Below are positions 1 to 49,817 of a DNA stretch of 64,000 bases, in pieces (the first letter of the stretch is position 1; each line of letters begins with the position of its first letter). Made by a program: the position numbers and the translations under genes. The stretch covers positions 15,634 through 79,633 of the forward strand of contig CAYGZP010000001.1 in the NCBI GenBank assembly GCA_964354405.1. Direction: 5' to 3'. Source of the DNA: Candidatus Woesearchaeota archaeon. Its GTDB lineage: Archaea; Nanobdellota; Nanobdellia; Pacearchaeales; UBA284. The notes below the pieces were generated by a model. The model ran no database searches and was not told the DNA's origin. It saw only the letters and a program-made list of their open reading frames with translations.

Positions 1-91
1 GTCAATAAATTAATAAAAGAAACAATTTCTGAAAAACCTTCGCTTTTCTAAATGCCCTTTATCCAATTACTTGTCAATTGTAACTTATCAC

Positions 92-469
92 TTATCTTCT
101 TGCCAAGACAATCACTGCCCCAATCAATCCCAACACTGGCCCGATAACAAATCCGTGTGGTGCAAGTATCAGAGCGAACAGGCTCAAAACAAGCAAGAAT
201 ATCGCAGAGACTCTCGCAGTTTTATGTATTACATAAACCAAGACTATCATCAAGGCACCCAAGATAAAGGATATCAACGAAGCCACTGGTTCCATCGCCC
301 CCATCATCGATATGATCGCGGCAATCATCACTAAAATTCCACCAACCAATCCCAAGATATGTTCTGACTGAACAACTGAGACTTGTCTGGCAGCCGGAGC
401 TTTCGGAGCTCTCATCACTTTTCTTCTAGATTTCACTTTCTTTGCTTTTACTTTCCTCTTTTTTGCCAT
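92..469 (-). CDS. small membrane protein with lysine-rich N-terminal tail (hypothetical)
   Basis: 125-aa ORF. N-terminus MAKKRKVKAKKVKSRRK is followed by three hydrophobic helices. No family recognised. Confidence 0.35.
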   Translation of the reverse strand: MAKKRKVKAKKVKSRRKVMRAPKAPAARQVSVVQSEHILGLVGGILVMIAAIISMMGAMEPVASLISFILGALMIVLVYVIHKTARVSAIFLLVLSLFALILAPHGFVIGPVLGLIGAVIVLARR

Positions 470-491
470 GTATAGCCTATACTTTTGAGAT

Positions 492-878
492 TTAAAAAGT
501 TATCTTTGATTTAGAAAATCCATTAAGTGAAATCTGTTTAACTAATTTATGCATCCTTGCTTTTTCAATTTCTTTCCGTGAAAACCATTTATAATTTGTA
601 ACTTCGTCCATCTTTAGATTAATTCTTCCTTTATTGACCTTACAAATATAATGGAGAGTGTTTTTGCCATTGCGTTCTTTAAGTATATAAAATGGCTTTT
701 TCGCAATATTAATATTTAAATTAATTTCTTCCATAGCTTCTCTTTTCATGGCTTTTCTGTTAGTCTCTCCTTTTTCGACATGCCCCGCAACAAACATCCA
801 TATATCTAATTTTTTGTGATATATCAAAAGCAATTTCTTATTTCTAAAAATCAATCCCGCAGCGACCTCTTGTTTCAT
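492..878 (-). CDS. NUDIX hydrolase
   Basis: Nudix box GHVEKGETNRKAMKREAMEEINL matches the GX5EX7REUXEEXGU pattern; 128 aa. Confidence 0.6.
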   Translation of the reverse strand: MKQEVAAGLIFRNKKLLLIYHKKLDIWMFVAGHVEKGETNRKAMKREAMEEINLNINIAKKPFYILKERNGKNTLHYICKVNKGRINLKMDEVTNYKWFSRKEIEKARMHKLVKQISLNGFSKSKITF

Positions 879-944
879 AAAAATAAAATTTGTTAGAGAC
901 TTATAAATTTATTTAATTGTTCCAAAACAAAAGTTTCTTATTTA

Positions 945-983
945 TTAACCCCTCCTCAGTGACAAACCGAAAAGCTTATAAAT
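945..983 (+). promoter_or_regulatory. conserved upstream element A, copy 1: TTAACCCCTCCTCAGTGACAAACCGAAA followed by TATA-like AGCTTATAAAT
   Basis: Near-identical 38-nt element also at 3613-3650 and 11754-11792, each 20-40 nt upstream of a + strand start codon. BRE/TATA-like 3' half. Confidence 0.55.
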
Positions 984-1006
984 GTGAATCTCTTTAAAAT
1001 AAAACA

Positions 1007-1510
1007 ATGAAAGATTTAGTTAAGTTAGCAATGGCGATGTTTACGTTACTCTCTTTGTCTTGCTATCAAAAGGTAAAAAACGAAGAGAAATTTAAAGGCT
1101 GGTTTGCTTCAGCTATAATTTATGATTATCTTGGACAGGAAAAAAAGGCATTAGACTGTTTAGATTCTCTTCAAATCCATGCAAGAGAAGGAGAACTTCA
1201 ATTTTATAAACGATTGCCAAAAAAAAGGCTTCTTGAATTGTCCGAATGGGATTCTAGAGCTTGGATAGAGCGTGGAAAAATTTATAGAGAATTGGGGGAT
1301 TGTGAAGGAGCTCTAAAATGTTTTAGAACTGCTATTACTACTTATTTGGGAAATGGTGAAAGGTTTGAAAAGTTATCTGACTTGGATTCTTGGGATCCTA
1401 TAATTGCTTCTCGTATAGAAAGCGCTAAAACCTTTAAGGAAATGGGTGAAGAAAAAAGGGCTAAAAACTTTGGAAAAATTCTTGAAAAATATCTTAAGGC
1501 AAATTACTAA
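1007..1510 (+). CDS. putative lipoprotein with TPR-like helical repeats
   Basis: N-terminal signal with LSLSC lipobox-like cysteine. Helical repeats with W/Y/G/A spacing typical of TPR. Preceded by element A. Confidence 0.4.
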   Translation: MKDLVKLAMAMFTLLSLSCYQKVKNEEKFKGWFASAIIYDYLGQEKKALDCLDSLQIHAREGELQFYKRLPKKRLLELSEWDSRAWIERGKIYRELGDCEGALKCFRTAITTYLGNGERFEKLSDLDSWDPIIASRIESAKTFKEMGEEKRAKNFGKILEKYLKANY

Positions 1511-1525
1511 TCGCTTCGATTGAAC

Positions 1526-2596
1526 TTAAACTTTGATTAATTCTAAAATTCTATCTTTGTCTGTGGTATAAACAATCTCAAAGGCCTTAGCTTTAATAAT
1601 GGTCTCTCCTTTTTCTGCATTATGTTTTATATCAAAATTACCAATACCAAAACTACAGGCAGTTGACAAAGCTTTTAAAGGATAATTTTTACTTTCTGCC
1701 GAAATACAATAACTAGGGTCTGTTGAACAGCAAATGAGTGTCTCGCCTTGCGTCACTAATTTCACTATAGCATTTCTTAATTCTTGACCATCTTTGTACA
1801 ATTTTCCTTTTTCTACTTTAAGTGTCTTTTCTTTGGAGATATATTTTGCAATTGTTCCAACATTAGCAGTATATTGACTTAGCATCTGTTTTCCTGACTG
1901 ATCTGATTTGATAAGATATGCATTAGCTTCACTCCATGTCAGCTTCCTTTCATCTGGTTTAGAAAATTCTAAAGTTATGCCTGAAATTTGTAATTCTGGT
2001 TGAGTGTAAGGCCTCTGAAATCCACCATAATAGTAAGTCGAAATTATGCTGCCGGCATACATTACGTTATCTTTTTCTTCTTTATATCTTGGCACTGATA
2101 TTTTTCCGTTACTTATAATTCCATTCTTATCGAAGAATATGCTTGTTGAAAGATAATTTATTTGTGTTATTTTATCTTCTACCATAAACGAAGCGAGATT
2201 ACCAAGCATCGCAGCTATCCTATCTCCTTGGTCTACGTCCCTCTCTTCAATAAAAGTTTCTTCATATTGTAGAGCTGCTATAACACTGCTTAAAGGAGTC
2301 TGACCAACATAAGCTTCGTATTTTTGCTGCTGTTGATCATATTTAACATTAAAGGCGCCCCTAAGTTCTCCTTCATCATAAGTTAATCCATAAGTACTTA
2401 AATGATTTTGAACATTTTCTCGAGGAGTAAAGCAAAAGATAAGATGAAATGTGCCAATCTCGTCTTTCCATAAGTGTGCATATTTATTAGGGTCTTGAGT
2501 TGGAGCGCATCCAAAAATAGCTGTCGCAGAAGATGTTAGAAAAATACTTATTAAAATAAACAAGATAAACAACATAAACAGCACATATTTTCTCAT
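1526..2596 (-). CDS. secreted hypothetical protein
   Basis: 356 aa. N-terminal signal peptide MRKYVLFMLFILFILISIFLTSSATA. No recognisable domain. Upstream region is repeat C copy 1. Confidence 0.45.
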   Translation of the reverse strand: MRKYVLFMLFILFILISIFLTSSATAIFGCAPTQDPNKYAHLWKDEIGTFHLIFCFTPRENVQNHLSTYGLTYDEGELRGAFNVKYDQQQQKYEAYVGQTPLSSVIAALQYEETFIEERDVDQGDRIAAMLGNLASFMVEDKITQINYLSTSIFFDKNGIISNGKISVPRYKEEKDNVMYAGSIISTYYYGGFQRPYTQPELQISGITLEFSKPDERKLTWSEANAYLIKSDQSGKQMLSQYTANVGTIAKYISKEKTLKVEKGKLYKDGQELRNAIVKLVTQGETLICCSTDPSYCISAESKNYPLKALSTACSFGIGNFDIKHNAEKGETIIKAKAFEIVYTTDKDRILELIKV

Positions 2597-2654
2597 AATA
2601 AAATAAAACTTTTAAACTTTTTAAATTTATCTCGGTTTCGCAACTGTTCACTCA

Positions 2655-2772
2655 ACCACGACAAGCTTAATCCAGTATAACAATCTTCTTTAGTTTCAAC
2701 TGAAACAACCGATAACTTTGTATGCCAATTGATAGCTTATATTATCAAATGATAGAAAACATTCACTCAACC
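2655..2772. repeat. intergenic repeat C, copy 1 (about 120 nt, roughly 75-80% identical to 5347-5465) containing inverted repeat TTGATAGCTTATATTATCAA at 2729-2748
   Basis: Direct comparison of the two intergenic regions; both lie 50-170 nt upstream of minus-strand secreted-protein genes. Confidence 0.6.
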
Positions 2773-2810
2773 TTCATTCTTTTATCATTCAAGCAATAAT
2801 TCTTAGAACT

Positions 2811-3185
2811 CTAAGTATTGACAACAAGTTCTTTTTCAAAAATCTCATTAGCTTTTTTAGCAATAGTCCACTGCAATCTAAGCATCTGCCTTACTATTGG
2901 ATTTTTTTCATTAAGTTTAAACATTCTAGCCTTGCCAACCTTTCTTGTTTCAATTACAAGCCCTGCCTTAACAAACTCCGGCCAAAACGACATTAAACTC
3001 GTATAGCTTACTTCAGAGTTTTTTGCTATATCTGTTAAACTGTAATCGAAAGCTTGAAACGTAAGCAAAAAATCTAAAACTCTTAATTTTGGACTGTGCC
3101 CTACAACTTTTAAAAATATTGATTCTGACATATTATTTGCAAGAAATTGATATTTATAAATCCTTCTATTTTTAAACAATATCAT
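2811..3185 (-). CDS. putative winged-helix DNA-binding protein
   Basis: 124 aa, small basic alpha/beta protein with an HTH-like segment (SLTDIAKNSEVSYTSLMSFW). TATA-like CTTATAAATTTT about 40 nt upstream of the 3185 start. Confidence 0.35.
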   Translation of the reverse strand: MILFKNRRIYKYQFLANNMSESIFLKVVGHSPKLRVLDFLLTFQAFDYSLTDIAKNSEVSYTSLMSFWPEFVKAGLVIETRKVGKARMFKLNEKNPIVRQMLRLQWTIAKKANEIFEKELVVNT

Positions 3186-3246
3186 ACAAAAATGAAAACT
3201 TTCTTTTTTAAGAAAATTTATAAGTGTATTTCATCTTTATATTTTT

Positions 3247-3513
3247 ATGAAAGAAGAGGAGATCATTGCTACTTTATTAAAAAAACTGTATTTGGCTGGA
3301 AAAATAGGCCATAGCCATACTCCTTTTGAGAACTTGCCAAAGGGATTTCCCTCAAATATTGGGAAAGAAGTAAAGCAAATAGCAAAAATGCTTGCAAGGA
3401 AAGGCATATTAATTTTAAGTAAGCACAACTATGGCATTGGCGTTTCATTAAATCATAAAAGATTACAAGAAATAAAAGTAATTATTGAAAAAGTTTTTCC
3501 AAATATAGTTTAA
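3247..3513 (+). CDS. hypothetical small protein
   Basis: 88-aa ORF, no recognisable family. Confidence 0.25.
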   Translation: MKEEEIIATLLKKLYLAGKIGHSHTPFENLPKGFPSNIGKEVKQIAKMLARKGILILSKHNYGIGVSLNHKRLQEIKVIIEKVFPNIV

Positions 3514-3534
3514 TAAAATTATTGACTCCTCACT

Positions 3535-3612
3535 TCATCAAAACAGCCTTCTCCGGTTTCAATAATTCTTTAGAATCTTTTGGCTTTAGAAAAACAAAGT
3601 AAGTTATAAGTA
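3535..3612 (-). pseudogene. decayed fragment of a T9SS-like C-terminal sorting domain (repeat B), directly abutting element A copy 2
   Basis: Minus-strand translation gives ...GVNTYNLL.. and ..RIIETGEGCFDEV. Nucleotide-level similar to the 6519-6685 fragment and to the C-terminus of the 11821..12813 product. Stop codons and frameshift are present. Confidence 0.4.
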
Positions 3613-3650
3613 TTAACCCCTCGTCAGTGACAAACCGAAACCTTTAAATA
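3613..3650 (+). promoter_or_regulatory. conserved upstream element A, copy 2
   Basis: TTAACCCCTCGTCAGTGACAAACCGAAACCTTTAAATA, 22 nt upstream of the 3672 start. Confidence 0.55.
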
Positions 3651-3671
3651 TCTTAAACCATTATAAACATA

Positions 3672-4172
3672 ATGAAAAACTTAGAAAACAAACTTGGCTT
3701 CGGAGCAACTATTTTTAGTTTAATCTTAGCTCTATCTACAGCACTTTCTTGCGATAAAAAAGAAAAGGGTTTTGCTTATGTAAGTGAAGGCCCCCCATCT
3801 AAAGAAAAAACAGAAAATCCTGCTGAAATTTATATCAAAAAAGCTTTGAACTTTAAAGAGCAGGGGCAGCTTGACAGCGCCTTAGTTTATTCTACAAAAG
3901 CAATAAATAATCAAAGAATATTAGAAAGTGAGCAGGTAGGAAACATGCATTATCTTAGAGCCCAAATACACCAATATTTTAGTAGAAATAAAGAAGCCAT
4001 CGAAGATTATGAAGATGCAATTTACTGTTATTCTAGTAAGATGATGACAAAAGAATGTATTCCAATATATCTTGAAATGACAGAACTTCATGAAAAATTA
4101 GGCGATAAAGAAAAGGCAGAGGAATGTAAAAGATTAGCTGAAAGATTTGAAGAATACCGCAGAACACATTAA
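3672..4172 (+). CDS. putative lipoprotein with TPR-like repeats
   Basis: 166 aa; signal plus ALSC lipobox-like Cys. Helical repeat content. Same size and architecture as the 1007..1510 product. Confidence 0.4.
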   Translation: MKNLENKLGFGATIFSLILALSTALSCDKKEKGFAYVSEGPPSKEKTENPAEIYIKKALNFKEQGQLDSALVYSTKAINNQRILESEQVGNMHYLRAQIHQYFSRNKEAIEDYEDAIYCYSSKMMTKECIPIYLEMTELHEKLGDKEKAEECKRLAERFEEYRRTH

Positions 4173-4176
4173 TTCT

Positions 4177-5301
4177 CTAACCTCTTAATATTTCCATTAT
4201 TTTTATCAGTTCTTCCTCATTCGAAGGCTTTAAAATCTTAACATTCTTCGTTTGAATTTCAGTTGTGATACCAATTTCTTTTTCTCCTTCAGCAATAATT
4301 TTAAATTCACATTCTTCTGCTAAAGAATATTGCAACTTTCCATCAATTTCACCATAACAAAAAAGATATTCATTTTCTGCTTCACTAACTAAAAATGCTA
4401 AATTCTTACTCCTTAAATCAAAATAAGAAGAATAAAGAAAACGCTTGATTAGAGGAATCTTGACTCCTGCAACTATAGCGCCACTGCTATTTTTCTTAAT
4501 CAAAAAAGAGTTGTAAATCCAAGTATAATTAAACATCCCACTAATTCTTGTGAAATCTCTGATATTTAAAGCAAAATCTGAGCTTTGGTCTATAAAATAA
4601 GTTACATATGAACAAAAATCATCGCCAGGAAGATAGCAATAAATCTTTACCTTAGTATTTGGGGCATCCAACCAAAATGAGCCTAATTTATCATAAGTAT
4701 AACTTATTTTCATATCTTCTTCATAGGGTTCATCAAAAGCCTCATAAAAATACCATGCTTTTGTCTTTTCATCATGAATGCTATAGCTTCCCTTATTATA
4801 AACATAAATTTTCCTTTCGGTAAAATTAATTAAAGCCCTCTCGACCCGAATTTCCCAAGATGCTCTTTTGGCAACAATATCTCCAATTGAACTATCTTTA
4901 AACATAATCACTCCACTAACAATTCTTCCACTTTCATCAAGAGATAAATTTTCAATAATTCTGGCTCTTTGCCATTGCATCTCACGAAACAAAGAATCAG
5001 TTGTGTTAAAAATTCCTCGCATTTGTCTTTCATATTGTGGGAGTTCCTTGACTAAGTCGCTTATTTCTTCTTCTGAGAGCTCTCTCTTAATGATTATTTC
5101 AAACCAATAAGTACTTGTTTCGCCTGCTTCAATGAATTCATGATCTAAATCTTTAGCAATTAGATAAGTAAAAATCGCCCTGCCAGGAACATTGTTTACT
5201 AGCCTTATTGGAAGTGTTTGATCCTCTGCAATAACATTAGAAAACAATAAAATAAATGTTAATAATAACAAAATAGACAGTATTGGTTTTTTCAATTTCA
5301 T
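4177..5301 (-). CDS. secreted hypothetical protein
   Basis: 374 aa; signal peptide MKLKKPILSILLLLTFILLFSNVIA. Repeat C copy 2 lies upstream. Confidence 0.45.
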   Translation of the reverse strand: MKLKKPILSILLLLTFILLFSNVIAEDQTLPIRLVNNVPGRAIFTYLIAKDLDHEFIEAGETSTYWFEIIIKRELSEEEISDLVKELPQYERQMRGIFNTTDSLFREMQWQRARIIENLSLDESGRIVSGVIMFKDSSIGDIVAKRASWEIRVERALINFTERKIYVYNKGSYSIHDEKTKAWYFYEAFDEPYEEDMKISYTYDKLGSFWLDAPNTKVKIYCYLPGDDFCSYVTYFIDQSSDFALNIRDFTRISGMFNYTWIYNSFLIKKNSSGAIVAGVKIPLIKRFLYSSYFDLRSKNLAFLVSEAENEYLFCYGEIDGKLQYSLAEECEFKIIAEGEKEIGITTEIQTKNVKILKPSNEEELIKIMEILRG

Positions 5302-5346
5302 ACGAAAAGAAAATGTCGCGACCTTTTATAATTTATCTTTTATTTA

Positions 5347-5465
5347 ATCACGACAAACTTAATCTATTATAACAACTTTCTCCGACTTCAATCTAAACAA
5401 CTGAAAACTTTATCTCTCAATTGATAACTTATATTATCAACTGATAGAAAACATCCATTCACAAC
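5347..5465. repeat. intergenic repeat C, copy 2, with inverted repeat TTGATAACTTATATTATCAA at 5421-5440
   Basis: Aligns with 2655-2772 (cacgacaa.cttaatc...aactgaaa...caattgata.cttatattatcaa.tgatagaaaacat). Followed at 5500-5560 by a short repeat-B-like segment and a TATA (GATTTATAAAC) for gene 5586. Confidence 0.6.
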
Positions 5466-5585
5466 AGATTATCTCGTCTTCACAACTTTTTTTGTTGGCA
5501 ACCCAGCTTCTTCTGGCTTTATGAAATAAACTCTTAAAGAGAAAAAACGAAAGATTTATAAACAATTGTTAAATAATATTAACAT

Positions 5586-6095
5586 ATGTTAAAAATAATT
5601 AACGATTTAATGGTTTTTTTTGAAGATTGCTATAGAGAAATTAATGTAAGAGAATACGCCAAAATTAAAAAAATATCACCACCCACCGCCTCTAAACTAT
5701 TATCTTATTATTACTCTGAAAAGTTTTTAATGAAAAGAAAATATAAGAATTTACTTTTATTTTCAGCAAACAATCAAAATAAGCACTTTATTGATTTATC
5801 TAGAATATATTGGTCTGAAAGAATGAAAGAATTAATTGAATTCATAGAAAAAAGACTTATTTCTCTAACAATAATATTATTTGGCTCTCTTTCAAAAGCT
5901 GAAGTTAAATTAGATTCGGATATTGATCTGGCCATATTTGCGCATAAAAAAGAATTAAATATAGAAAGTTTTGAAAGAAAGTTCAAACGAAAAATAAGAA
6001 TATTTTGGTTTAAATCAGTAAAAGATATTAAAAGTAAAGAGCTCGCAAATAACATAGTCAATGGATATGTTTTAAAAGGGAGAATATTATTATAA
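5586..6095 (+). CDS. minimal nucleotidyltransferase (MNT) with N-terminal HTH-like region
   Basis: GSLSKAEVKLDSDIDLAIF matches the GS-x(9-13)-DxD polymerase-beta-type NTase motif. 169 aa. Confidence 0.55.
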   Translation: MLKIINDLMVFFEDCYREINVREYAKIKKISPPTASKLLSYYYSEKFLMKRKYKNLLLFSANNQNKHFIDLSRIYWSERMKELIEFIEKRLISLTIILFGSLSKAEVKLDSDIDLAIFAHKKELNIESFERKFKRKIRIFWFKSVKDIKSKELANNIVNGYVLKGRILL

Positions 6096-6097
6096 AA

Positions 6098-6511
6098 ATG
6101 AACTGGAGAGAATGCTGTAATAAAAGGATAGTAAAGAATGTAAACCCTGATTTAGATATGACAATCTCTCTAATCAAAAGTAGCGAGAATAAATTGAAAT
6201 CTGAAGAAAAACTTGTTATGAGCGCAGTAACTGCGAGTTCAAAAATTTCTCTTGTTTATGATTCATTGAGAGAACTTTTAGAAGCATTGGCTTTAAAAGA
6301 AGGATACAAAATTTATAATCATGAATGTTACACTGCTTTCATTAAAGAGATTATAAAAGAAAGTGACAGAGGAGACGAATTTGATGAAATAAGAAAGATA
6401 AGAAATGATGTGAATTATTATGGAAAAGAAATATCTGTAGAAGAGGCTGAAAATGTTATTAATAGAATAAAAAACCTAAGAGTTTCTATATCAAAATTAT
6501 TAAAAAAATAA
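6098..6511 (+). CDS. HEPN-like all-alpha protein, partner of the upstream MNT
   Basis: Start is 3 nt after the MNT stop. All-helical 137 aa. Conserved R..RN motif region (RKIRNDVNYY) lacks the canonical His. Confidence 0.4.
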   Translation: MNWRECCNKRIVKNVNPDLDMTISLIKSSENKLKSEEKLVMSAVTASSKISLVYDSLRELLEALALKEGYKIYNHECYTAFIKEIIKESDRGDEFDEIRKIRNDVNYYGKEISVEEAENVINRIKNLRVSISKLLKK

Positions 6512-6518
6512 CTAACCT

Positions 6519-6685
6519 TTACCTCATCAAAACAACCCTCTCCGGCTTTAGCAATTCTTTGCCATCTTCAGGTTTCAAGAAAACAAAGTAAGCCCCATTA
6601 GCCAAGCCATAAGTATTAATCTTATTGCCTTTTCCTTTATAAGCAATCTTCCCAGAAACGTCATAAAGATAATAATTTATCCTTT
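6519..6685 (-). pseudogene. orphan fragment of a T9SS-like C-terminal sorting domain (no start codon)
   Basis: Minus-strand translation is ERINYYLYDVSGKIAYKGKGNKINTYGLANGAYFVFLKPEDGKELLKPERVVLMR*. It has no Met and a stop lies upstream. Matches the LYDASGRKI...NGVYFV...KLTLLK tail of 11821..12813. Confidence 0.5.
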
Positions 6686-6795
6686 CTTAAAAAGGTTTTG
6701 AGTTAAAGAAAATTATTAGCTAAATCTTCAACTTTTTGTTGATTATTATTTAACCATTTAAGAAAATTTATAAAGCTTTTATTCTTATTCGTTAA

Positions 6796-7896
6796 ATGAA
6801 AAAAGAGTTCATGGATCCTTGGGGGGATACTTTATTAGATTATGAAAAAGCTGCAAAAAAATTTGGTATTCAACCTATTTCTGAAGAAATGAAAAAATTC
6901 TTTAAAAATAATAGATTTTTTTCTAGAAATATTATAATGGCACATAGGGATTTTGACAAAGTTTTTGAAAGAATAAAATCAAAAGAGCCCTTTATTCAAA
7001 TGACTGGAATAGCTTCTTCTGGAAAATTTCATTTTGGTCATAAAATGATAGTAGATTTATTTCTTTCTTTCAAGGAATACAATTCAAAAAATTATTTTGG
7101 AATTTGTGATATTGATGGATATGTTAGTAGGCCAGATTTTAAAGTGCCCTCTTTAGAAAAAGCAAAAGAATATGCTATTAATAATTTAGCTCATGTTCTT
7201 GCATTAGGATTAAATGAAAAAGATGTTTTTGTTCAAAGTAAAAAAGAACAAAGATACTATGAATTTGCTTTTGAATTAAGTAAAAAGATTACTGGAAATA
7301 TGTTTAAAGCAGTTTATGGTCATTTAGATTTAGGAAAAATTTCTGCTAATTTATTGCAATATGCAGATATTTTACATCCACAATTAAAAGAATATGAAGA
7401 TAGAATGCCAAGTATTACAGCGATAGGATTAGAACAAGATCCGCATATAAGAGTAACAAGGGATATTGCAAAAAGATTGCCTTATAATCTTGAATTGCCA
7501 AGCTCACTTTACATTATTTACCAAGGGGGTTTATTAGCTAATAAAAAAATGTCATCGTCACAACCAGAAACTGCTATTTTTCTCGATGATAGTGAAGAAG
7601 AAGCAGCAAAAAAATTAAGAAATTCATTTACAGGGGGGCGAGAAAACATAGAAAAACAAAAAGAACTTGGAGGACAACCCCCAATATGTAGAATTTTTGA
7701 AATATATAGATTCCATCATCCTAATGATGATTTTGTTAAAGAAATAGAAAAAAATTGTAAAGCAGGAAAATTAATGTGTAAAGATTGTAAAAAACAATGT
7801 ATAGATTTTATAATTTCATTTTTAAAAAATCACCAGAAAAAACTTGTAAAAACCAAGAAAATTGCTGAGAAGATGGTATTGAAAGATGATAAATAA
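6796..7896 (+). CDS. trpS: tryptophanyl-tRNA synthetase, archaeal/eukaryotic type
   Basis: Class I aaRS with HIGH-like GKFHFGH and KMSSS. Strong similarity to eukaryotic TrpRS blocks (EQDPHIRVTRDIAKRLPY; SFTGGRENIEKQKELGGQP). Cys-rich C-terminal tail. Confidence 0.75.
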   Translation: MKKEFMDPWGDTLLDYEKAAKKFGIQPISEEMKKFFKNNRFFSRNIIMAHRDFDKVFERIKSKEPFIQMTGIASSGKFHFGHKMIVDLFLSFKEYNSKNYFGICDIDGYVSRPDFKVPSLEKAKEYAINNLAHVLALGLNEKDVFVQSKKEQRYYEFAFELSKKITGNMFKAVYGHLDLGKISANLLQYADILHPQLKEYEDRMPSITAIGLEQDPHIRVTRDIAKRLPYNLELPSSLYIIYQGGLLANKKMSSSQPETAIFLDDSEEEAAKKLRNSFTGGRENIEKQKELGGQPPICRIFEIYRFHHPNDDFVKEIEKNCKAGKLMCKDCKKQCIDFIISFLKNHQKKLVKTKKIAEKMVLKDDK

Positions 7897-8935
7897 ACTT
7901 AATCCTTGGAAAATACCTACTTTAACACCTAAAATATATGAATACCTAATTAAGCATTATTCTTTACAACCTATAGATTTTAAATTAAAAAATAATCCCA
8001 TTTTCTTAAGAAGGAATTTAATAGTAGGTCATTATAAATTTTTAGAATGGTTAAAAAAAGCAGAAAAAGGAGAAAAAGTCGCTTTAGTAAGTGGATTTAT
8101 GACGAGTGGTTTTTTGCATTTAGGAAGTTTGGCTGTAATTAAACAAATAGTATATTATCAAAAAAACTACGGTGCTAAAATAATTATTCCAATAGCAGAT
8201 TTAGAAGCTATTTGTGTTAGAAAAACAAAAAAATCTGAAATAAAAAGAATTTTGATAGATTTTTTAGCTCATTTTTTTGCAACTGGTCTTTCTCCAAAAG
8301 ATACTTTAATATATTTACAAACTAAAAATTTAGAAGTATTAAAACAAGCAAGTTTATTTACAGGAAAGATTAGTTTAGAAAATCTAGAAAAAATATATGA
8401 TAGAAAATTAACTCTTGGAGAAATACACTCTTCATTAGTTATGGCTGCTGATATTCTTTATCCTCAATTTTTTAATTATAAAGGAACTTTAATTAATTTA
8501 GGAATAGATGAAATATGTCATTTTTCTCTTGTAAAAGAATTAATTCCTATATTAGGAAAAGAATTTTATATTCCTAGTATAACATACAATAAAATAATTA
8601 CAGGACTAAATGGATCTAAAATGGGCAAAAGCATACCCAAAAATAGCATACTTCTTCTAGATAAACCAAAAATAGCACGATCTAAATTAATAAAATTAAA
8701 AAACAAAAATATAGAATTATTTCAAAACACTGCTTTTAATATTCTTGAATGGTATTGCGAAGATGATTCTATAATTAAGAAAATTTTAAATATTTCTGAT
8801 AAAAAAGAAGCAAATAACTTGGCAATTAATGAAGCTTGTGATGTAGTTCAAAAACTTTTAGAAAAACATCAAAAAAAATATAGAAAAAATCTTCCAATAG
8901 CAAGAAAGATCGTAAAAGAATTAATGAAAGACTAA
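7886..8935 (+). CDS. tyrS: tyrosyl-tRNA synthetase-like class I aaRS (archaeal/eukaryotic type)
   Basis: GFMTSGFLHLGS (HIGH with the second His replaced) and GSKMGKS. Blocks LYPQ...GIDE...TGLNGSKM resemble archaeal/eukaryotic TyrRS. Overlaps the previous gene by 11 nt (operon). Confidence 0.55.
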   Translation: MINKLNPWKIPTLTPKIYEYLIKHYSLQPIDFKLKNNPIFLRRNLIVGHYKFLEWLKKAEKGEKVALVSGFMTSGFLHLGSLAVIKQIVYYQKNYGAKIIIPIADLEAICVRKTKKSEIKRILIDFLAHFFATGLSPKDTLIYLQTKNLEVLKQASLFTGKISLENLEKIYDRKLTLGEIHSSLVMAADILYPQFFNYKGTLINLGIDEICHFSLVKELIPILGKEFYIPSITYNKIITGLNGSKMGKSIPKNSILLLDKPKIARSKLIKLKNKNIELFQNTAFNILEWYCEDDSIIKKILNISDKKEANNLAINEACDVVQKLLEKHQKKYRKNLPIARKIVKELMKD

Positions 8936-8936
8936 G

Positions 8937-9914
8937 ATGAAAAAAACAATAAAATATAAGGCATTAGAATTGGGTAAAGATGGAAAGTTAAGAATTGTAC
9001 AAAAAGAATTATTTACTTCTAAACCATATGCAAAAATGATTTACAGTGGAATTTGTGGAACTGATAAACATGCAATAAATGGGTCTTTGAAATTAGATCT
9101 TCCAATAGTCCTGGGGCATGAAAATGTTGGAATAGTTAACGGAAAAAGAGTTACGTGGTCAACAATTTTACCATGCAAAAAATGCGCCAATTGCTTATGT
9201 GGAATGGAAAACATATGTGAAAAAAATCAATTGTTTGGAATAACAACAAGAAAACCAATGGCAGGTGGTTTTGGTGAATATACCCCTCTGCCCAAAAATA
9301 CAATATTATTTGAGATTCCTGATGATATAGACGATGATGTTGCTGTTTTAATAGAGACTATGGCAAGTACAAAAGCACTAAATAGAGTTAATTTAAATGG
9401 TAAAAAAATATTGATTATAGGTTCTGGTCCAATAGGGATGTTATCTGCAATTCACGCTAAATCTAAAGGTGCCGAAACTATAGGAATTACAGGGTATAAA
9501 GAACAAGTTAATTTAATAAAAGGCATCATTGATGAATTTTATGAAAAAAACATTCCTGTAAAGAAGATAAAAAGTGAATATGACATTGTTATGGATGCTG
9601 GAGGAAATGTTGGTTCACTTGACTATTCTGTTGAAGCGGTAAAACCAAGAGGAATTGTTATAGAAAGTGGATGCATGGTTAAAGATTTCTTCTTTGACAT
9701 TTCAAAATTAGTCAAAAAAGAACTTACAATGATTACGCAACTAGGTTATGTGCCTAAAGATTTCAAATGGGCTATAGAACTAATCAGAAAAAATAAAAAA
9801 ATATTAAAAAAAGTCATAACTCATAAATTTAAAATTACAGAATATGAGAAAGCGGTTGATGTTCTTAAAAATGTAAAACATGGAAAAGTTATGTTTTCTT
9901 TTAAAGAAAACTAA
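8937..9914 (+). CDS. zinc-dependent alcohol dehydrogenase family (MDR) oxidoreductase
   Basis: GICGTDKH and GHENVG catalytic-zinc motifs, structural-zinc Cys cluster CKKCANCLCG, and GSGPIGM Rossmann motif. Confidence 0.7.
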   Translation: MKKTIKYKALELGKDGKLRIVQKELFTSKPYAKMIYSGICGTDKHAINGSLKLDLPIVLGHENVGIVNGKRVTWSTILPCKKCANCLCGMENICEKNQLFGITTRKPMAGGFGEYTPLPKNTILFEIPDDIDDDVAVLIETMASTKALNRVNLNGKKILIIGSGPIGMLSAIHAKSKGAETIGITGYKEQVNLIKGIIDEFYEKNIPVKKIKSEYDIVMDAGGNVGSLDYSVEAVKPRGIVIESGCMVKDFFFDISKLVKKELTMITQLGYVPKDFKWAIELIRKNKKILKKVITHKFKITEYEKAVDVLKNVKHGKVMFSFKEN

Positions 9915-10687
9915 AGCTTATTCTTTTTGAGTATATTTTTTAATTTCTCCTTATTTAAATCTCCTATTTTAATATCCCCTACTTTTTGTTTATAAGTATA
10001 GACTTCTCCTATTGAATTAACAAAACATGAATCCTCAGGCATATCTTTTGCTTTACATGCATTAATGTTTAGATGGGGAAATTTGGACTTTATCTTTAAA
10101 ATTAGAGAATTATACTCCTCATGAGGAATAGAGAATTTTTTCTTGTATCTTTTGGCCTTATTTAGTGGAACAAATTCAAGTAAAAACCATTCATTTATCT
10201 TATAGGTCTTTAATATATCTCCGATATTTTGTATATCTGAAAAATTCAATCGGGTTATTAATGTTTTAATGTCAACTTTTATTCTGAGGTTATTGAATGT
10301 TTTAATTAAATATAATGTTTTGTTGAAGATGTTTCCGCTTTTTCTCATAATAAAACTTTTTTGGTTATTTGAGCTATCTAAAGTCAAACTAACTATATCA
10401 ACATATTTTAATATTTCTTTTGCTTTGTTTTTTGTAATATTCAGTCCAGTTATATGAGCGCTTATAGATAATCCTTTAGACCGAGCATACTTTAAAATCT
10501 CTAGAAAATCCTTGCAATAAGCAGGGTCCCCTCCACTAAGTATAATCCCTTTAAAACCTGCTTTGACAATTTGGGAAATTATAAACTTTTTGAAATTTGT
10601 TGAAACATCCCTATATCTTTTGTCCCAAAAACAAAAATTACAATTTAAAGGACAAGTGTTCCCCATAAGATAATATGCTATTTTCAT
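9911..10687 (-). CDS. radical SAM domain protein
   Basis: CPLNCNFC (Cx3Cx2C) near the N-terminus; GGDP motif; 258 aa. Confidence 0.55.
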   Translation of the reverse strand: MKIAYYLMGNTCPLNCNFCFWDKRYRDVSTNFKKFIISQIVKAGFKGIILSGGDPAYCKDFLEILKYARSKGLSISAHITGLNITKNKAKEILKYVDIVSLTLDSSNNQKSFIMRKSGNIFNKTLYLIKTFNNLRIKVDIKTLITRLNFSDIQNIGDILKTYKINEWFLLEFVPLNKAKRYKKKFSIPHEEYNSLILKIKSKFPHLNINACKAKDMPEDSCFVNSIGEVYTYKQKVGDIKIGDLNKEKLKNILKKNKL

Positions 10688-10722
10688 TTAATCAATAACA
10701 AGAAAAAGCTTTATAAATTTTC

Positions 10723-11703
10723 TTAAAAATTAATTTTCATGGCTTCTTGAGCTTCCTTTAATGTTTGTTTAGCTACTTTTCTTGCTATTTTGCTTGAATC
10801 ATATAAAATCTGTCTTACTTGTTCTCTTTTAGAAGAATAATGGGCTCTTGTTTCTCTAAATAAAGAAAAATGATTGTATAAAATATCTGTTAATTGTCTT
10901 TTACAATCAACACAACCTCTATGACCACTTGAACACTCTAATTTAAGTTGTTGTTTATTTGGATTATAATAATTGTGAAGCATATATACACTACATATTT
11001 CGGGATGTCCAATATCGGCTTTTCTTATTTTTTGGATATCTGTAATCATAGTTGTTACTTTCTTAAGGAGGTTTTCTTTATTTTCTTCTGGAGAAATAAA
11101 ATTCCCTAAACTTTTACTCATTTTCCTTCCATCAGTACCTAATACTTTAGGATTTTCTGTTAAAATTATTTTAGGTTCTGGAAAAACATAATCAAAGAGG
11201 CCATTAAATCTCCTTATGATTTCTCTTGTTAATTCAAGATGAGGTGCTTGATCTTTTCCTACAGGTATGTGGGTTGCTTTGTATAATGCCATATCTGAAG
11301 CTTGTAATATAGGATAACCAAGAATGCCATAACTAGGATTTTTAATTTTTTCATTTACAACTATCTCTTTATATACAGGACACCGTTCTAACCAAGATAC
11401 GGGTGTTATCATAGAAAGCAAAGTATAAAGTCCAGTGTGCTCTGGAACAAGAGATTGCAAGAATATTGTTGATTTATTAGGATCAATTCCCAAAGATAGC
11501 CAATCAATAACCATTTCAAAAATATTTTCTTTTATTTTTGAATAATCTGTTCTATCTGTCATTGCATGAAAATCTGCAACTTCAAAAAAACATTTTTCTC
11601 CTTCATTTTGTAGTTTTAACCAACTATCAACCACCCCTACAATATGACCTAGATGCAACTTTCCAGTAGGTCTCATTCCACTTAATATTACTTTTTTCTC
11701 CAT
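10723..11703 (-). CDS. trpS2: tryptophanyl-tRNA synthetase, bacterial type (second TrpRS)
   Basis: SGMRPTGKLHLGH, GIDPNKSTIFLQSLVPEH, PVGKDQAPHLELTREIIRRFN and KMSKS align closely with bacterial TrpS. 326 aa. Confidence 0.75.
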   Translation of the reverse strand: MEKKVILSGMRPTGKLHLGHIVGVVDSWLKLQNEGEKCFFEVADFHAMTDRTDYSKIKENIFEMVIDWLSLGIDPNKSTIFLQSLVPEHTGLYTLLSMITPVSWLERCPVYKEIVVNEKIKNPSYGILGYPILQASDMALYKATHIPVGKDQAPHLELTREIIRRFNGLFDYVFPEPKIILTENPKVLGTDGRKMSKSLGNFISPEENKENLLKKVTTMITDIQKIRKADIGHPEICSVYMLHNYYNPNKQQLKLECSSGHRGCVDCKRQLTDILYNHFSLFRETRAHYSSKREQVRQILYDSSKIARKVAKQTLKEAQEAMKINF

Positions 11704-11753
11704 ATTTTTTAAAATGACCTTTATTTTAAATATCTTTCTCGAATAGCGGCTTA

Positions 11754-11792
11754 TTAACCCCTCGTCAGTGACAAACCAAAAAGTTTAAATAT
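11754..11792 (+). promoter_or_regulatory. conserved upstream element A, copy 3
   Basis: TTAACCCCTCGTCAGTGACAAACCAAAAAGTTTAAATAT, about 30 nt upstream of the 11821 start. Confidence 0.55.
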
Positions 11793-11820
11793 CTCTTTAT
11801 CTTATAAATCATATCGAAAA

Positions 11821-12813
11821 ATGTCAAATATAATCACATTAGCCCAACTCATAGCCCAACTTCTAAACACAAATCCCCAAGACATGAAGAACACACAATT
11901 CATTCCTCTCAATCCAGTCCAATATGTCATGATAGATGAAAAAAAAGAAGAAAAAATAAGTCCAAGTCTTGCTGCGCCCATGTTTCATGGAAGGGTATGG
12001 AGAGATTTATATGGGGCTGGTGCAGATAGTGCAGATGTAATCATAACAAATAAAAATGGGATTGATACAGTTATGGCAAGAGTTGGAAGGACAGGGACAA
12101 CCAGTTATTACAGTAGAACTGTTCCAGATGGCTGGGGTTTAGTAATAGGAGATATAGTAATAATAAAAGCAAAAGATATTGATGGTGACAGTGCAAAAAC
12201 ATGGAGAAATGTTACAAGTGCAACCGGAGCAAATCTAGTTATTGACTTGTTCACAGAAAATGTATATAATACTCATAAAGGACACTCATTACTTATCAAA
12301 GCAGTTAAGGATGACTTAATTGATAGTGTTGATGCAAAGTGTTGGGTTAAAGGAAAACCAGATACATTGCAAGATAGATTCAGAAGGAATACTTCATTCT
12401 ATAACATTGCTTTCAACGCAGAAAACTTCCCAACAGCTTCAAGGCCAACTTTGGGAGACAGCATTTTTTTCAAGATGACTACAGGTACTTATGCAGCAGA
12501 ATCAAAAGGACTTTATTTAAATCAGTTTATCGACGGTGATACATTCCCTTCATGCTCATTAAGATTACTTGGCGTAACAGAAGAACAATTAGAAAGAAAA
12601 TTAAGAGATAATAGACTTATCATAACACCAAACCCTTCAAAAGGAATGATTGTCTTGCCATCTCAATTCAAAGGATTCTTGTATGATGCTTCAGGAAGAA
12701 AAATTATGGATATAAAAAATGAAAAACTTGATTTGAGAAATTACTCAAACGGAGTTTACTTCGTGACAGACATTGATAACAAACAAAGAGGAAAATTAAC
12801 TTTACTCAAGTAA
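11821..12813 (+). CDS. hypothetical protein with T9SS-type (Por_Secre_tail-like) C-terminal domain
   Basis: C-terminal 65 aa, ITPNPSKGMIVLPSQFKGFLYDASGRKIMDIKNEKLDLRNYSNGVYFVTDIDNKQRGKLTLLK, matches the consensus of bacterial type IX secretion C-terminal sorting domains. No obvious N-terminal signal peptide. Confidence 0.45.
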   Translation: MSNIITLAQLIAQLLNTNPQDMKNTQFIPLNPVQYVMIDEKKEEKISPSLAAPMFHGRVWRDLYGAGADSADVIITNKNGIDTVMARVGRTGTTSYYSRTVPDGWGLVIGDIVIIKAKDIDGDSAKTWRNVTSATGANLVIDLFTENVYNTHKGHSLLIKAVKDDLIDSVDAKCWVKGKPDTLQDRFRRNTSFYNIAFNAENFPTASRPTLGDSIFFKMTTGTYAAESKGLYLNQFIDGDTFPSCSLRLLGVTEEQLERKLRDNRLIITPNPSKGMIVLPSQFKGFLYDASGRKIMDIKNEKLDLRNYSNGVYFVTDIDNKQRGKLTLLK

Positions 12814-12821
12814 TTTATTAT

Positions 12822-15800
12822 TTATTCTTGCACCCAAGTAATATTTGAGGTTAAACCACCAACATAATAAATAGTTCCTGCTTGAAGATTAAAGTTAAGT
12901 TGATCTTCGGGGAAGTCCCTTATAAATTTACATTGTGAAAAGGTACCTAGTAAATAATACTGTTCAATCGGGTCCCATGCCGCAACAACAGAGGTTTCAT
13001 CATTCCCTAATCCCAAACCTAAAGCTATACACAAATCAACCGCCTTCGCCAACCTCGTGTCAAGAGGAAGAGCGATGTAATTGGCCATGCCGTCCTGATT
13101 TCCATATAAATTATAACTAACTCGCTCAGGAAGCTCTCCGACCCACGTGAAATCATCAAAGTCCATTGTCGCAGCGACAAAGTAAGGCGAGTTGTCTGTG
13201 AGAGGGAAAATTCCTGTGACTGTGTATTCTGGAGGCCCTTGAGTGACTGAATCACCAGGAGTGATATAGCCTCCTTGATATTGGTTTGAATAAGCTGTGT
13301 CTTGCATTATCGCCGCCCCCGTCATATAATTATTTCCTTGTTCAGATTGAGTTTCATATCTGTGATCTTCTTCGTAAATTCCATAAATTCCCTTGCCTCT
13401 GTTGAACCATCCTCTCGCCGAGCCCTGTTGATCCTGTCTCATGACATTCCATCTCGCAATATAATCTATAGGAACAGTGCTAAGTAAGAAATCTTTAGTT
13501 GAGTGAATTCCTTCGATTGGAAGGAACAAGAACCAATTGATGCTTGTTTGAGGAGTCTCACCATAACGTTTAGGTTCATTATATATCAGAGGCTGAGTGT
13601 ATTTAACAAAAATATCTGAGCTTTGGTTGCATGCTATAGCATACTCTCCTTCTTCGCACTGGGCATAAGTTATCAGATTATCAGAAGGCTTGGCCAAGTC
13701 ACATCTGACATTATACCATCCCTCGCTCTTTGAAGGCGCAAAACAGCACTGTGGCTCATCTCCTATAACACATAAATCCTCTTTCAAAAACTCTTCTGTG
13801 CAAGGATCATACCATCCCTCGCGATGCACTCCCTGATAATACTGCCAGCACTCTGGCTTGCAAGCTCCTATTCCAAGTTTAACTTTCGCTATGACTTTAA
13901 AAAATTTCAACCTTTCATCAACTCTCTCTTGCCATGAATTCCCCGAGATACCTTGCCCAATCAAAGTGAAATTGCTCAAATTTCTCTGTCCTTGAACCTT
14001 GTCAGCAGCCAAAACATTTGTGTTCAACAACTGATTTCCTGCAGCAGTCTGCCAAGTTAGTATTAATATTTTGTCAGGGATATTCCACGAGACATCTGTA
14101 TCAAGTTTAGGAAGCGCTGAACAATTTGTTATGTTCATTGCACAATCTTCAGGACAATTGCAATAATTCTCGCAACTCTGGCATAATCCATCTCCGCATT
14201 TAGTGCAGCATTCGCTTCCAACAGACGCACACACGTCACAATCATTAGTTGTTCGATAACAATCCATATCGTAAATGAAACTTGTAGTTAATCCTTCACA
14301 ACACTCTTTATAAGAAGGATGCCCTGGAGGAAATATTGCAAATGCCGAGCATAACTGTTCACAGCAATGTCCACAGTCTTCTGGGCAGTTAGTGCAATTC
14401 TCTCCAATGGTTGCATCACAAATACTATCCCCGCACCATTCTACAGGCTCAACTCCGCCTCCACCGCCGCCGCCAGATGTTCTGACATTAAAACAATGCT
14501 CAATATTGCTCATTGTTGTATTCCATTGATCACTTGAGTCATTAGCCCACTGGTTCCAGCATATTATCTTGCCAGCATCTCCTGCTGTATTAATAGTATT
14601 ATTACACCATCCCGAGTTTCCTGCCATATCGCAAGTCGAGACATTAGTCCAAGTTCCCGAATCATTAGTTCTGAAAACTGCTTGGCTCAACTCAACATCA
14701 TCCTCCCAGTAAACATAAACATTGACATTAGTTCCTTGCCTTACACTCCCTCCTGAATTGTCATCATCTTGGCTGTAATTAGGCGCTGAAGTGTCCCCGC
14801 CGCCGGCCTCGCCCATCGGCGCGAAGATGCTGAAGTTGCTGATATTAACATAAACATAATTGCCAGCAGTGCTGACATTGCTTCCATCAATAATGCTCCA
14901 TGTTCCAAACACTGGCGGATCCCCAGAATATTCCCACATTGCTAAAGTGCTTTCATTGACATCGCCGAGCTCGCTTTCATTGTAAGAGATGTTAAGAGTA
15001 ATCCATGGTGAACTAGGAACCCCCAATACACAATTTTGTTGAGTTTCACAATAAGAGTCATTATAAGTGTCACAAGTTGAGTGAGTGCCTTCGCACCATC
15101 CTCCAACATTCCATGAGCAACCCTGCTGTCCAGGACATTCTTCCTCAAAGAAGTTCCCACAGTCTAAAGCCTCCCCCGCACAAAGGAAAGTGCCTGAGAG
15201 ATCTTCAGTTGTGTTGCTTATATTAAGATACTTGCTTATATTTTGATAGCCGTCAGGGTCGGTTGCAGGTGATGTCGCTGATTTCAAGGCAATATTCCAT
15301 GCATTAAAACTGGTTCTCATGTCATCAACGCTCAAATTAGTCACAGAATCATAACCCGAAGCTGGGTCATCAGCATATTCTATATAAAAGTCATAAATCC
15401 CGCTGTTAGTAATCTCATTGTTAGTGAAATCATTGCTGCCGCTCTCTAACAACGCTTCTCCAGGGCTTGCAATATAAATCGCATAATCCACATCATCAAG
15501 AGTATTGCCTTCAACATCACAATTATCCTCATCACTCAAATAGATTCCATAATCTCCTCCTGAAATGTTATTGAATGAGACATTATGCAAACTTCCTGGG
15601 CCACCGCCCCCTCCTGAAGTTGCATCCAGTAAAACATGAACAGTGTTAGCATCCATAACATTTGAAAAGACAACATCACTATCACATAATCTTGCTACAA
15701 CCCCATATTCATTATTCGTAAAATTATTTTCTTCTATTCGGTTGTTCCCATTCACATCATAAACCCCATAATAATTATTGTTTAAGATAGATTCAGAAAC

Positions 15801-24081: not shown

Positions 24082-24125
24082 TTTATTTTTTGTTTTTCTT
24101 TTGATAAAATCTTTTTCTAAAAGAT

Positions 24126-24398
24126 TTAGCCAAAAGCCCTTCTGAAGTCTATGGTTTCAACCGATTGTACATTCTCAATTTTTGCAACAGCGTTCTCAAT
24201 CAAATCCAGATCTTTATTCTCAGGCCAGGCAATAGTCAATATGAGCGCATTCAAGCCAAAAGCAATAGGCTCTATCTCACTCGCGTGTAGCCTTGCTTCC
24301 AAACCCTCTATAACTTCTTTTGCATCAGTTTTTATTTTTTCTAAATCAACTTCAGGAGAAACAGGCATTATTTTTATCTTCAAAGCCGCGACCGCCAT
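24126..24398 (-). CDS. translation elongation factor 1-beta (aEF-1beta)
   Basis: 90 aa. MAVAALKIKIMPVSPEVDLEKIK...IEPIAFGLNALIL matches archaeal EF1B. Confidence 0.7.
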   Translation of the reverse strand: MAVAALKIKIMPVSPEVDLEKIKTDAKEVIEGLEARLHASEIEPIAFGLNALILTIAWPENKDLDLIENAVAKIENVQSVETIDFRRAFG

Positions 24399-32701: not shown

Positions 32702-32829
32702 TAAGAATCTTTTATAAAAAGATTCTATCAAAACTATCAAGAAACTGAGTTTAGCTATTCGGCTATTTGTAATCACTACCCAATGAATACAAACCGAAAG
32801 ATTTATAAATACCCTATTCTTATGAAATA

Positions 32830-49749: not shown

Positions 49750-49817
49750 TTTTTGTTTTTATTTTTTCTTTTTATCTTTTATTTTTTTATCTTTTGATAA
49801 AATCTTTTTCTAAAAGA

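Follow-up and report, generated by a model that had tools for sequence, protein, structure and literature searches.

In the Thermococcales, the glycolytic motif (TGM), TATCAC-N5-GTGATA, defines a regulon and is bound by Tgr/TrmBL1, and the effect of this binding depends on the position of the motif relative to the BRE/TATA. The regulon of TFB-RF1 in Pyrococcus furiosus consists of two promoters, those of pf1089 and pf1011, where the footprint of the protein, about 24 nt long, lies directly 5′ of the BRE; TFB-RF1 acts by aiding the recruitment of TFB (PMC5937170). The sites of EarA precede the BRE of the archaellum operons by about 9 nt (PMC10665913). A further class of upstream sequence is that of the putative mobile promoters, described by Matus-Garcia et al. 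in 2012 ("Promoter propagation in prokaryotes"), which are similar sequences lying upstream of non-homologous genes in one genome (PMC3488235). Assignment to this class is by alignment of the upstream regions over at least 50 nt at 80% identity or more.

The element described here is a 26-nt block, TATTAACCCCTC[C/G]TCAGTGACAAACC, that is present three times, always on the plus strand, in the window, that is, the whole 64-kb stretch of DNA that was analysed. The window is part of a contig of at least 420 kb, and the copy counts refer to the window. Each copy is followed by a BRE-like segment, a TATA box and a start codon, as follows.

943 to 968, plus strand: upstream element, copy 1, TATTAACCCCTCCTCAGTGACAAACC, at −64 to −39 relative to the ATG at 1007
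969 to 983, plus strand: copy 1 BRE-like GAAAAGC and TATA box TTATAAAT, with the ATG 23 nt on
3611 to 3636, plus strand: upstream element, copy 2, TATTAACCCCTCGTCAGTGACAAACC, at −61 to −36 relative to the ATG at 3672
3637 to 3650, plus strand: copy 2 BRE-like GAAACC and TATA box TTTAAATA, with the ATG 21 nt on
11752 to 11777, plus strand: upstream element, copy 3, TATTAACCCCTCGTCAGTGACAAACC, at −69 to −44 relative to the ATG at 11821
11778 to 11791, plus strand: copy 3 BRE-like AAAAAG and TATA box TTTAAATA, with the ATG 29 nt on

Copies 2 and 3 are identical over the 26 nt, and copy 1 has one mismatch. The 26-mer, which includes the CAGTGAC and TTAACCCC segments, is the second-longest exact direct repeat of the 64-kb window, only one being longer. 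The initial annotation had reported near-identical copies at these three sites, and this is confirmed: TTAACCCCTCSTCAGTGACAAACC is found at 945–968, 3613–3636 and 11754–11777, all on the plus strand, with 0 copies expected by chance (100 dinucleotide-preserving shuffles), and no further copy of it at up to 3 mismatches was found on either strand of the 64-kb window. The places reported for the block are correct, but it begins 2 nt earlier, with TATTAACC, at 943, 3611 and 11752. Exact-pattern scans with AACCCCTCNTCAGTGACAAA of genome, metagenome and viral collections, which do not include the source genome, gave only chance matches inside the coding sequences of unrelated organisms.

The limits of the element are abrupt at both ends. 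In the 70 nt 5′ of the three copies, similarity is at the level of shuffled sequences (p 0.42–0.97), and the copies diverge again 3′ of the TATA box; over 50 nt, pairwise identity among them is 40/50, 40/50 and 39/50. Copies 1 and 2 are each found again, with 100% identity, in independent assemblies made from several sequencing runs, which excludes an assembly artefact. The repeat and its bounds are thus established.

The TATA boxes, at 976–983, 3643–3650 and 11784–11791, match TTTAWAWA exactly or with one mismatch, and their distances from the ATGs bear out the earlier statement that the block lies 20–40 nt upstream of the start codons. For comparison, a generic promoter consensus was made from 31 other upstream regions of the window, each anchored on its best TATA box. 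It consists of a loose, A-rich BRE at −7 to −3 followed by TTTAWAAA, often 21–24 nt before the ATG, and the 21–29 nt spacing of the copies agrees with it. As in the 31 other promoters, the copies have a TATA box (TTATAAAT or TTTAAATA) with CGAAA or CAAAA directly 5′, which fits the VRAAA-type archaeal BRE (PMC5937170). The 3′ part of the repeat had been read as the genome's BRE/TATA consensus; a correctly spaced core promoter is indeed there, but AAACCGAAA is not a general BRE consensus, its full form being present at only about three other promoters of the window. By their sequences, the BRE and TATA of the three copies look strong, not weak. In this they are unlike the classic activator-dependent promoters, and activation is not obviously needed. 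A basal factor expected to act on such promoters is encoded in the window, as follows.

30644 to 31594, minus strand: TFB (TFIIB-type) gene, with a TFIIB repeat (E 5e-50) and a zinc ribbon

The presence of this gene indicates that the organism uses BRE/TATA-dependent initiation; the window also encodes aIF2-alpha, EF-1-beta and ribosomal proteins of the eukaryote/archaea type, as expected of archaeal DNA, and for one of its proteins the nearest homologue with a name is that of a "Candidatus Pacearchaeota archaeon". From the TATA–ATG spacing we infer leaderless or near-leaderless transcripts at the three genes, with transcription starting at the ATG or a few nt before it.

Promoter cores are highly stereotyped in this genome. 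An identical 24-nt generic promoter, TTTAAGAAAATTTATAAAGCTTTT, is found at 6757–6780 (plus strand) and 10704–10727 (minus strand), with a partial copy at 3207, and it precedes unrelated genes, one for a paralogous aminoacyl-tRNA synthetase of the W/Y type and the other for a radical SAM protein.

The initial annotation had also held that the 5′ part of the repeat is conserved beyond the needs of a basal promoter. This is so: the 31 generic promoters show no conservation there, with no base preference at positions −16 to −8 from the TATA box, positions that are invariant in the three copies. Nor does the motif lie upstream of most genes, as a generic promoter would, being carried by only 3 of the approximately 60 genes of the window. 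Searches with half-motifs elsewhere in the window gave nothing above chance. In an ungapped scan of the 100 nt upstream of 102 other ORFs, taken from the window and the loci of its relatives, the best 26-mer matches averaged 11.9 and reached 15 at most. The element ends 0–1 nt 5′ of the BRE-like GAAA, and its CAGTGAC lies 16–17 nt from the TATA box in the three copies. Its position directly upstream of the BRE, at a fixed distance, is that of an activator site, and both position and specificity are established. The 26-mer has no internal direct repeat, and its only dyad is GTCAGTGAC (4+4 with a 1-nt spacer; GTCAnTGAC) in copies 2 and 3, reduced to TCAGTGA in copy 1 and in the related locus L008.

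A profile built from 11 related promoters gave one additional, borderline match in 126 kb (E ~0.01), as follows.

32770 to 32809, plus strand: borderline fourth promoter of like architecture (GTAATCACTACCCAATGAATACAAACCGAAAGATTTATAAAT), CAGTGAC absent

This promoter precedes the gene for a 155-aa membrane protein, which is convergent with the gene for a 2536-aa giant protein. It resembles the promoter of CTD-321, a gene of the related locus L015 (GTAATCACTAyC...ACAAAmCGAAA-TATA), and might represent a fourth, degenerated promoter of this class.

Compared with the described systems, the element is like the TFB-RF1 sites in being a stretch of similar size directly upstream of the BRE/TATA at a handful of promoters. 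The TFB-RF1 sites, however, form a clear palindrome, TCTG-N5-CAGA, next to weak BREs, whereas the element has a minimal dyad and VRAAA-type BREs; the host organism of TFB-RF1 is also unrelated to the archaeon studied here. The likeness to the EarA/Ptr2-type sites of Euryarchaeota lies in the fixed short distance upstream of the BRE, in the association with cell-surface genes and in the preservation across relatives. In contrast, the EarA motif is a unit of 6–8 nt, often repeated, and the element is one long, non-repetitive 26-mer; the target genes of EarA are different, and no EarA-like gene was recognised here. The TGM, too, defines a regulon and acts according to its position, and its half-site GTGATA may be compared with the GTGAC/GTGATA of the present promoters (GTGATA in L015). 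The present promoters have no second, inverted half-site, however; no gene of the TrmB family was identified, and both lineage and gene set differ.

The genes downstream of the three copies, and those convergent with them, are as follows.

1007 to 1510, plus strand: TPR-A, a TPR protein of 167 aa whose hydrophobic N-terminal segment ends in a Cys, lipobox-like by eye
1526 to 2596, minus strand: 356-aa secreted-type protein, convergent with TPR-A, no family match
3530 to 3620, minus strand: truncated CTD-coding relic; at its broken 5′ end it adjoins copy 2 or shares the first 6 nt of that copy
3672 to 4172, plus strand: TPR-B, a 166-aa TPR lipoprotein-like protein, distant paralogue of TPR-A
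4177 to 5301, minus strand: 374-aa secreted-type protein, convergent with TPR-B, no family match
11821 to 12813, plus strand: CTD-330, a 330-aa protein with a sub-threshold Por_Secre_tail-like (T9SS-type) C-terminal sorting domain
12822 to 18629, minus strand: ORF for a 1935-aa giant surface protein, convergent with CTD-330

The upstream neighbours of the copies are unrelated to each other: a NUDIX gene for copy 1, an 88-aa ORF and the CTD relic for copy 2, and TrpRS for copy 3. The downstream genes had been described as three unrelated ones, which does not hold. TPR-A and TPR-B are weak paralogues of like architecture, both with a lipobox-like N-terminus (approximately 22–35% local identity, E 0.004), and although CTD-330 has no relation to the TPR proteins, the three families are linked in relatives. 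These relatives are represented by loci designated here by L numbers. The pair of TPR-A and the 356-aa protein is kept in L011, L012 and L020, and that of TPR-B and the 374-aa protein in L015 and L016; in L014, a 367-aa orthologue is present, the convergent gene there being cut by the contig end. The pairing of CTD and giant genes is kept in L008, and homologues of the giant protein adjoin CTD-321 in L014 and L015. These last two loci share the gene order giant-like gene, CTD-321, 361/367-aa protein, to which L015 and L016 add the convergent TPR-B gene; in L014, a gene for a 265-aa TPR protein lies between CTD-321 and the 367-aa gene. Since the families stand side by side in relatives, the three promoters belong to one recurring surface-protein neighbourhood.

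Several observations on these proteins and their surroundings may be added. At the N-terminus of CTD-330 (11821–11990), approximately 35 additional residues and a charged segment replace the short signal peptide of the orthologues (MKKTIIPAIIGGLLF...), and its export signal may be altered or lost. The structure prediction for CTD-330 (pLDDT 42) was unusable, and a model of the 356-aa protein (pLDDT 66) had no credible PDB match (best E 0.03, TM <0.2). Two truncated CTD fragments, at 3530–3620 and 6530–6680, both on the minus strand, consist of the sorting domain (...YFVFLKP.D.KELLKPE..VLM.*) without a gene body, and they indicate repeated decay of CTD-protein genes in the island. Upstream of the non-homologous 356-aa and 374-aa genes is a 123-nt block (D1), at 2647–2769 and 5339–5461, read on the minus strand, whose two copies are 78% identical and end just before the BRE/TATA of these genes. 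The block contains the palindrome CAnTTGATAATATAAGyTATCAATTG, and a weak similarity to the ends of CTD genes is confined to its last 15–38 nt (p 0.005–0.09); its position is occupied by CTD genes in L014 and L015. Tentatively, it may be a decayed CTD coding relic, or else a second shared regulatory block. In L019 (880–1010, compared with 3120–3810 of L015), the whole TPR-B gene and its promoter are absent and the neighbours are directly joined; the L019 orthologue of the 374-aa protein is 74% identical, and the loss of TPR-B is a cassette-sized deletion.

In about six related Pacearchaeota-like genomes, the orthologous promoters retain the architecture of those in the window, with (C)AGTGAC or a close variant 16–20 nt before TTTAAATA, as follows.

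L008, CTD family: promoter TTAACTTCTCATCAGTGACAAACCAAAAGATTTAAATAT
L011, TPR-A family: promoter TTACTTCTAGATAGTGTCAAAAAGAAAGATTTAAATAG
L015, TPR-B family: promoter ATAACCCTTCTTCA-[24 nt]-CAGTGATAAATAGAAACATTTAAATAT
L014 and L015, CTD-321: promoter ACTATCTTGTGACAACAAAACGAAAAGTTTAAATAT

Identity to the element is 13–21/26 in these promoters, against 25–26/26 within the genome. The highest score, 21, is that of L008 (genome GCA_023511755.1), which has the variant TTAACTTCTCATCAGTGAC; L011, L012 and L015, aligned at the same position, score 15, which is as high as the best background match (15/26), and the rest score 13–14. In the relatives' loci, GTGAYAA-N6-14-TATA is present at these promoters only. 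The (C)AGTGAC core is common to two non-homologous gene families in several genomes, and this partial conservation in orthologous promoters is established. We conclude that the element is old at the TPR and CTD loci and that its core is under constraint, long-term constraint being demonstrated for the core only. The sole variable base among the three copies, C or G, is also the base changed in L008, to A, as expected for a base that a protein does not contact.

Other parts of the promoters have a different history. The BRE–TATA spacer and the TATA–ATG segment of each copy resemble those of its own gene's orthologues, not those of the other copies. The 5′ half of the element, TTAAC-YYYY-TC, is identical in the three copies of the window and differs between lineages, distant orthologues keeping little of it. 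Since identity within the genome (25–26/26) is far above that of the orthologues, the copies have been homogenised within the genome. The sequences point to gene conversion over short tracts or the copying of promoters, to co-evolution with a regulator, or to both.

We propose, with moderate confidence, that the 26-nt element is a regulator-binding site that abuts the BRE, defines a small surface-protein regulon and has been homogenised within the genome. Each copy would form part of a composite archaeal promoter, as follows. The 3′ 14–15 nt, a purine-rich BRE and a TATA box, would be bound by TFB and TBP. The 5′ 26 nt, at about −64 to −39, would be a sequence-specific site for a transcription regulator, whose most constrained core would be (C)AGTGAC, 16–20 nt 5′ of the TATA box. 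As the site abuts the BRE, a protein on it could reach TFB/TBP and thereby promote or gate the assembly of the pre-initiation complex. The regulon would comprise the two paralogous TPR lipoproteins and the CTD-tailed protein, each of which has as its partner either a large secreted protein or a giant surface protein. Here we infer the binding of a protein, the direction of regulation and the co-expression of the genes. The initial annotation had offered a transcription-factor operator of a small regulon or, alternatively, the terminus of a mobile cassette; the first of these is favoured by a specific element that is absent from other promoters and has an activator-like position, and the second is not supported. 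The small-regulon reading is strengthened by the preservation of the core in the orthologous promoters of two non-homologous families. The earlier observation that copy 2 abuts a truncated CTD fragment is also correct, the CTD-coding relic (3530–3620, minus strand) meeting the 5′ edge of the element, and we read it as a natural deletion map, in which the deletion of a neighbouring CTD gene stopped at the edge of a needed element.

A nearby wHTH protein (2811–3185) had been put forward as a partner for the site. Nothing was found that links it to the motif: its winged-helix match is sub-threshold, no homologue of it was found near the cassettes in the relatives, and no copy of the motif, at up to 3 mismatches, was found at its own promoter.

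The element is real, sharply defined and lineage-restricted; it would be a cis-regulatory element, placed on the ordinary archaeal promoters of linked surface-protein genes, which it is predicted to regulate. This is an ordinary kind of gene control and no new kind of mechanism. To our knowledge, however, transcription control in DPANN archaea is almost wholly unexplored, and we know of no member of the lineage that is genetically tractable. The element ties together the TPR lipoproteins, the CTD-tailed proteins and their giant-protein partners, and offers a handle for capturing the regulator by DNA affinity. It suggests that surface genes, likely the host-contact apparatus of an episymbiont, may be expressed as one programme. 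Identity within the genome, set against drift between species, also makes a small case for studying the coherence of regulons in rapidly rearranging genomes.

The main alternative, which overlaps with the model of a regulator site, is the propagation of a strong promoter. Here, approximately 45 nt would have been copied by short-tract conversion or illegitimate recombination, there would be no dedicated regulator, and near-identity would reflect recency; identity within a genome can indeed come from recent copying without a dedicated factor. The excess of identity within the genome (25–26/26, against 13–21/26 between orthologues) is what such copying would leave, and the 39–40/50 identity of the copies is at the published threshold for mobile promoters (PMC3488235). 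The genome has other identical modules before unrelated genes, one of 24 nt (6757/10704) and one of 28–30 nt (24099/49792/32706), and the upstream neighbours differ in every orthologue, synteny always breaking just 5′ of the promoter. Like the putative mobile promoters, then, the copies are highly similar upstream sequences with unrelated upstream neighbours. Against this, the 40/50 criterion is barely reached, and among the downstream genes TPR-A and TPR-B are distantly paralogous to each other. Since the spacers and TATA–ATG segments match those of each gene's own orthologues, a single block of approximately 45 nt was not pasted, and only the 26 nt upstream are shared. Furthermore, the flanks bear no trace of co-transfer, and the CAGTGAC core is already present, at equal distance, in the orthologous promoters of both families; a core that is ancestral at these loci in other species argues for an old element and against simple recent mobilisation. 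We therefore regard promoter propagation without a regulator as a possible but rather unlikely account.

A stronger form of the regulator-site proposal would join both ideas, in that a promoter-plus-operator module would be kept identical by gene conversion among the non-homologous, fast-evolving surface-protein genes of a DPANN archaeon. We consider this unlikely. Under it, the cell could swap or lose surface cassettes and yet keep them under one switch. The module would be an archaeal "mobile promoter" co-evolving with its regulator, with breakpoints at the 5′ edge of the element (copy 2, L019).

That the element is a recombination site or the terminus of a mobile gene cassette, whether att-like, integron-like or the end of a MITE or IS with an outward promoter, is improbable. 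The abutment of copy 2 on the truncated CTD relic could be taken in this sense, as could L019, which is without TPR-B and its promoter and whose breakpoint is a few nt from L015 sequence resembling the 5′ half of the motif; the genomic context of the cassettes also varies between genomes. However, no inverted or second terminal copy bounds any cassette, and the three copies are equally oriented. Neither target-site duplications nor shared flanks were observed, and Pfam searches of the 64 kb gave no match to an integrase, transposase or recombinase, so the terminal sequence of a mobile cassette, as initially suggested, has neither an inverted partner nor the enzymes in the window. An IS or MITE terminus would be expected to have an inverted-repeat partner, along with either a transposase or a duplicated target site; the window shows none of these. 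The matches in the viral, genome and metagenome collections were chance ones in coding sequence only, and the fixed distance to the TATA box is explained by a promoter role, not by recombination.

Quite improbable is an ORB-like site for a winged-helix protein of the Orc1/Cdc6 type. The reverse strand has a dyad and a G-string, GGTTTGTCACTGACGAGGGG, with a loose likeness to the euryarchaeal ORB consensus, GTTCCAGTGGAAAC-AAA----GGGGG (PMC1868953), in that both combine a dyad centred on CA(G/C)TG with a run of G. But each arm is shorter by one base, and the distance between G run and dyad is 3 nt instead of approximately 10 nt. The copies, separated by 2.7 and 8.1 kb, all point the same way, and each has a fixed place next to a TATA box; there is no AT-rich unwinding element flanked by inverted boxes and no orc1/cdc6 gene within the window. 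Spacing, orientation and gene context thus all speak against membership of the ORB class. Least probable of all is a structured RNA element (a leader, small RNA or ribozyme) on either strand. The reverse strand has CTGACGAG, which may recall a hammerhead core, but no Rfam match at E≤1 was found in 1–12900, the fold energies of both strands are like those of shuffles (z −0.95 to +1.97), conservation ends at the TATA box, which puts the conserved part upstream of the transcript, and the central dyad leaves a 1-nt loop, so that no hairpin is possible. In the whole window, the Rfam 15 matches at gathering score are four tRNAs only. The motif was also considered as a coding relic, the reverse strand reading FRFVTDEG, similar to the YFVTD of CTD tails, and this was rejected, as the relic can be aligned only as far as TTAATA and no frame is open.

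The window contains further repeats and gene groups. A 28-nt intergenic repeat, AATCTTTTA[G/T]AAAAAGATT[T/C]TATCAAAA, is found at 24099–24126 and 49792–49819 on the minus strand and at 32706–32733 on the plus strand. Its chance expectation is zero, it is absent from the relatives' loci, and it contains a perfect 8-bp inverted repeat. The copies begin 0–4 nt after the end of the upstream gene or tRNA-Leu and precede unrelated genes, for a HIT protein, an ABC ATPase and the 155-aa membrane protein. The repeat may form a hairpin for termination or processing, or it may be one more module that has been propagated.

At 5586–6511, flanked by the second cassette and a CTD relic, is a gene for a 169-aa nucleotidyltransferase whose N-terminus is HTH-like (Pfam Polbeta/NTP_transf_2), followed by a gene for a 137-aa protein without a family match. 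The pair suggests a toxin–antitoxin system of the MNT/HEPN type, the HEPN assignment being a reading of the layout. Further on, the segment 6796–11703 has three genes for class-I aminoacyl-tRNA synthetases of the Trp/Tyr type within 5 kb (6796, 7886 and 10723), between which stand genes for a zinc alcohol dehydrogenase and a radical SAM enzyme. This segment is unusually poor in G+C, the content being 31–33% in the first 4 kb of the window, 27–30% over 4–12 kb and approximately 35–42% from 12 kb on.
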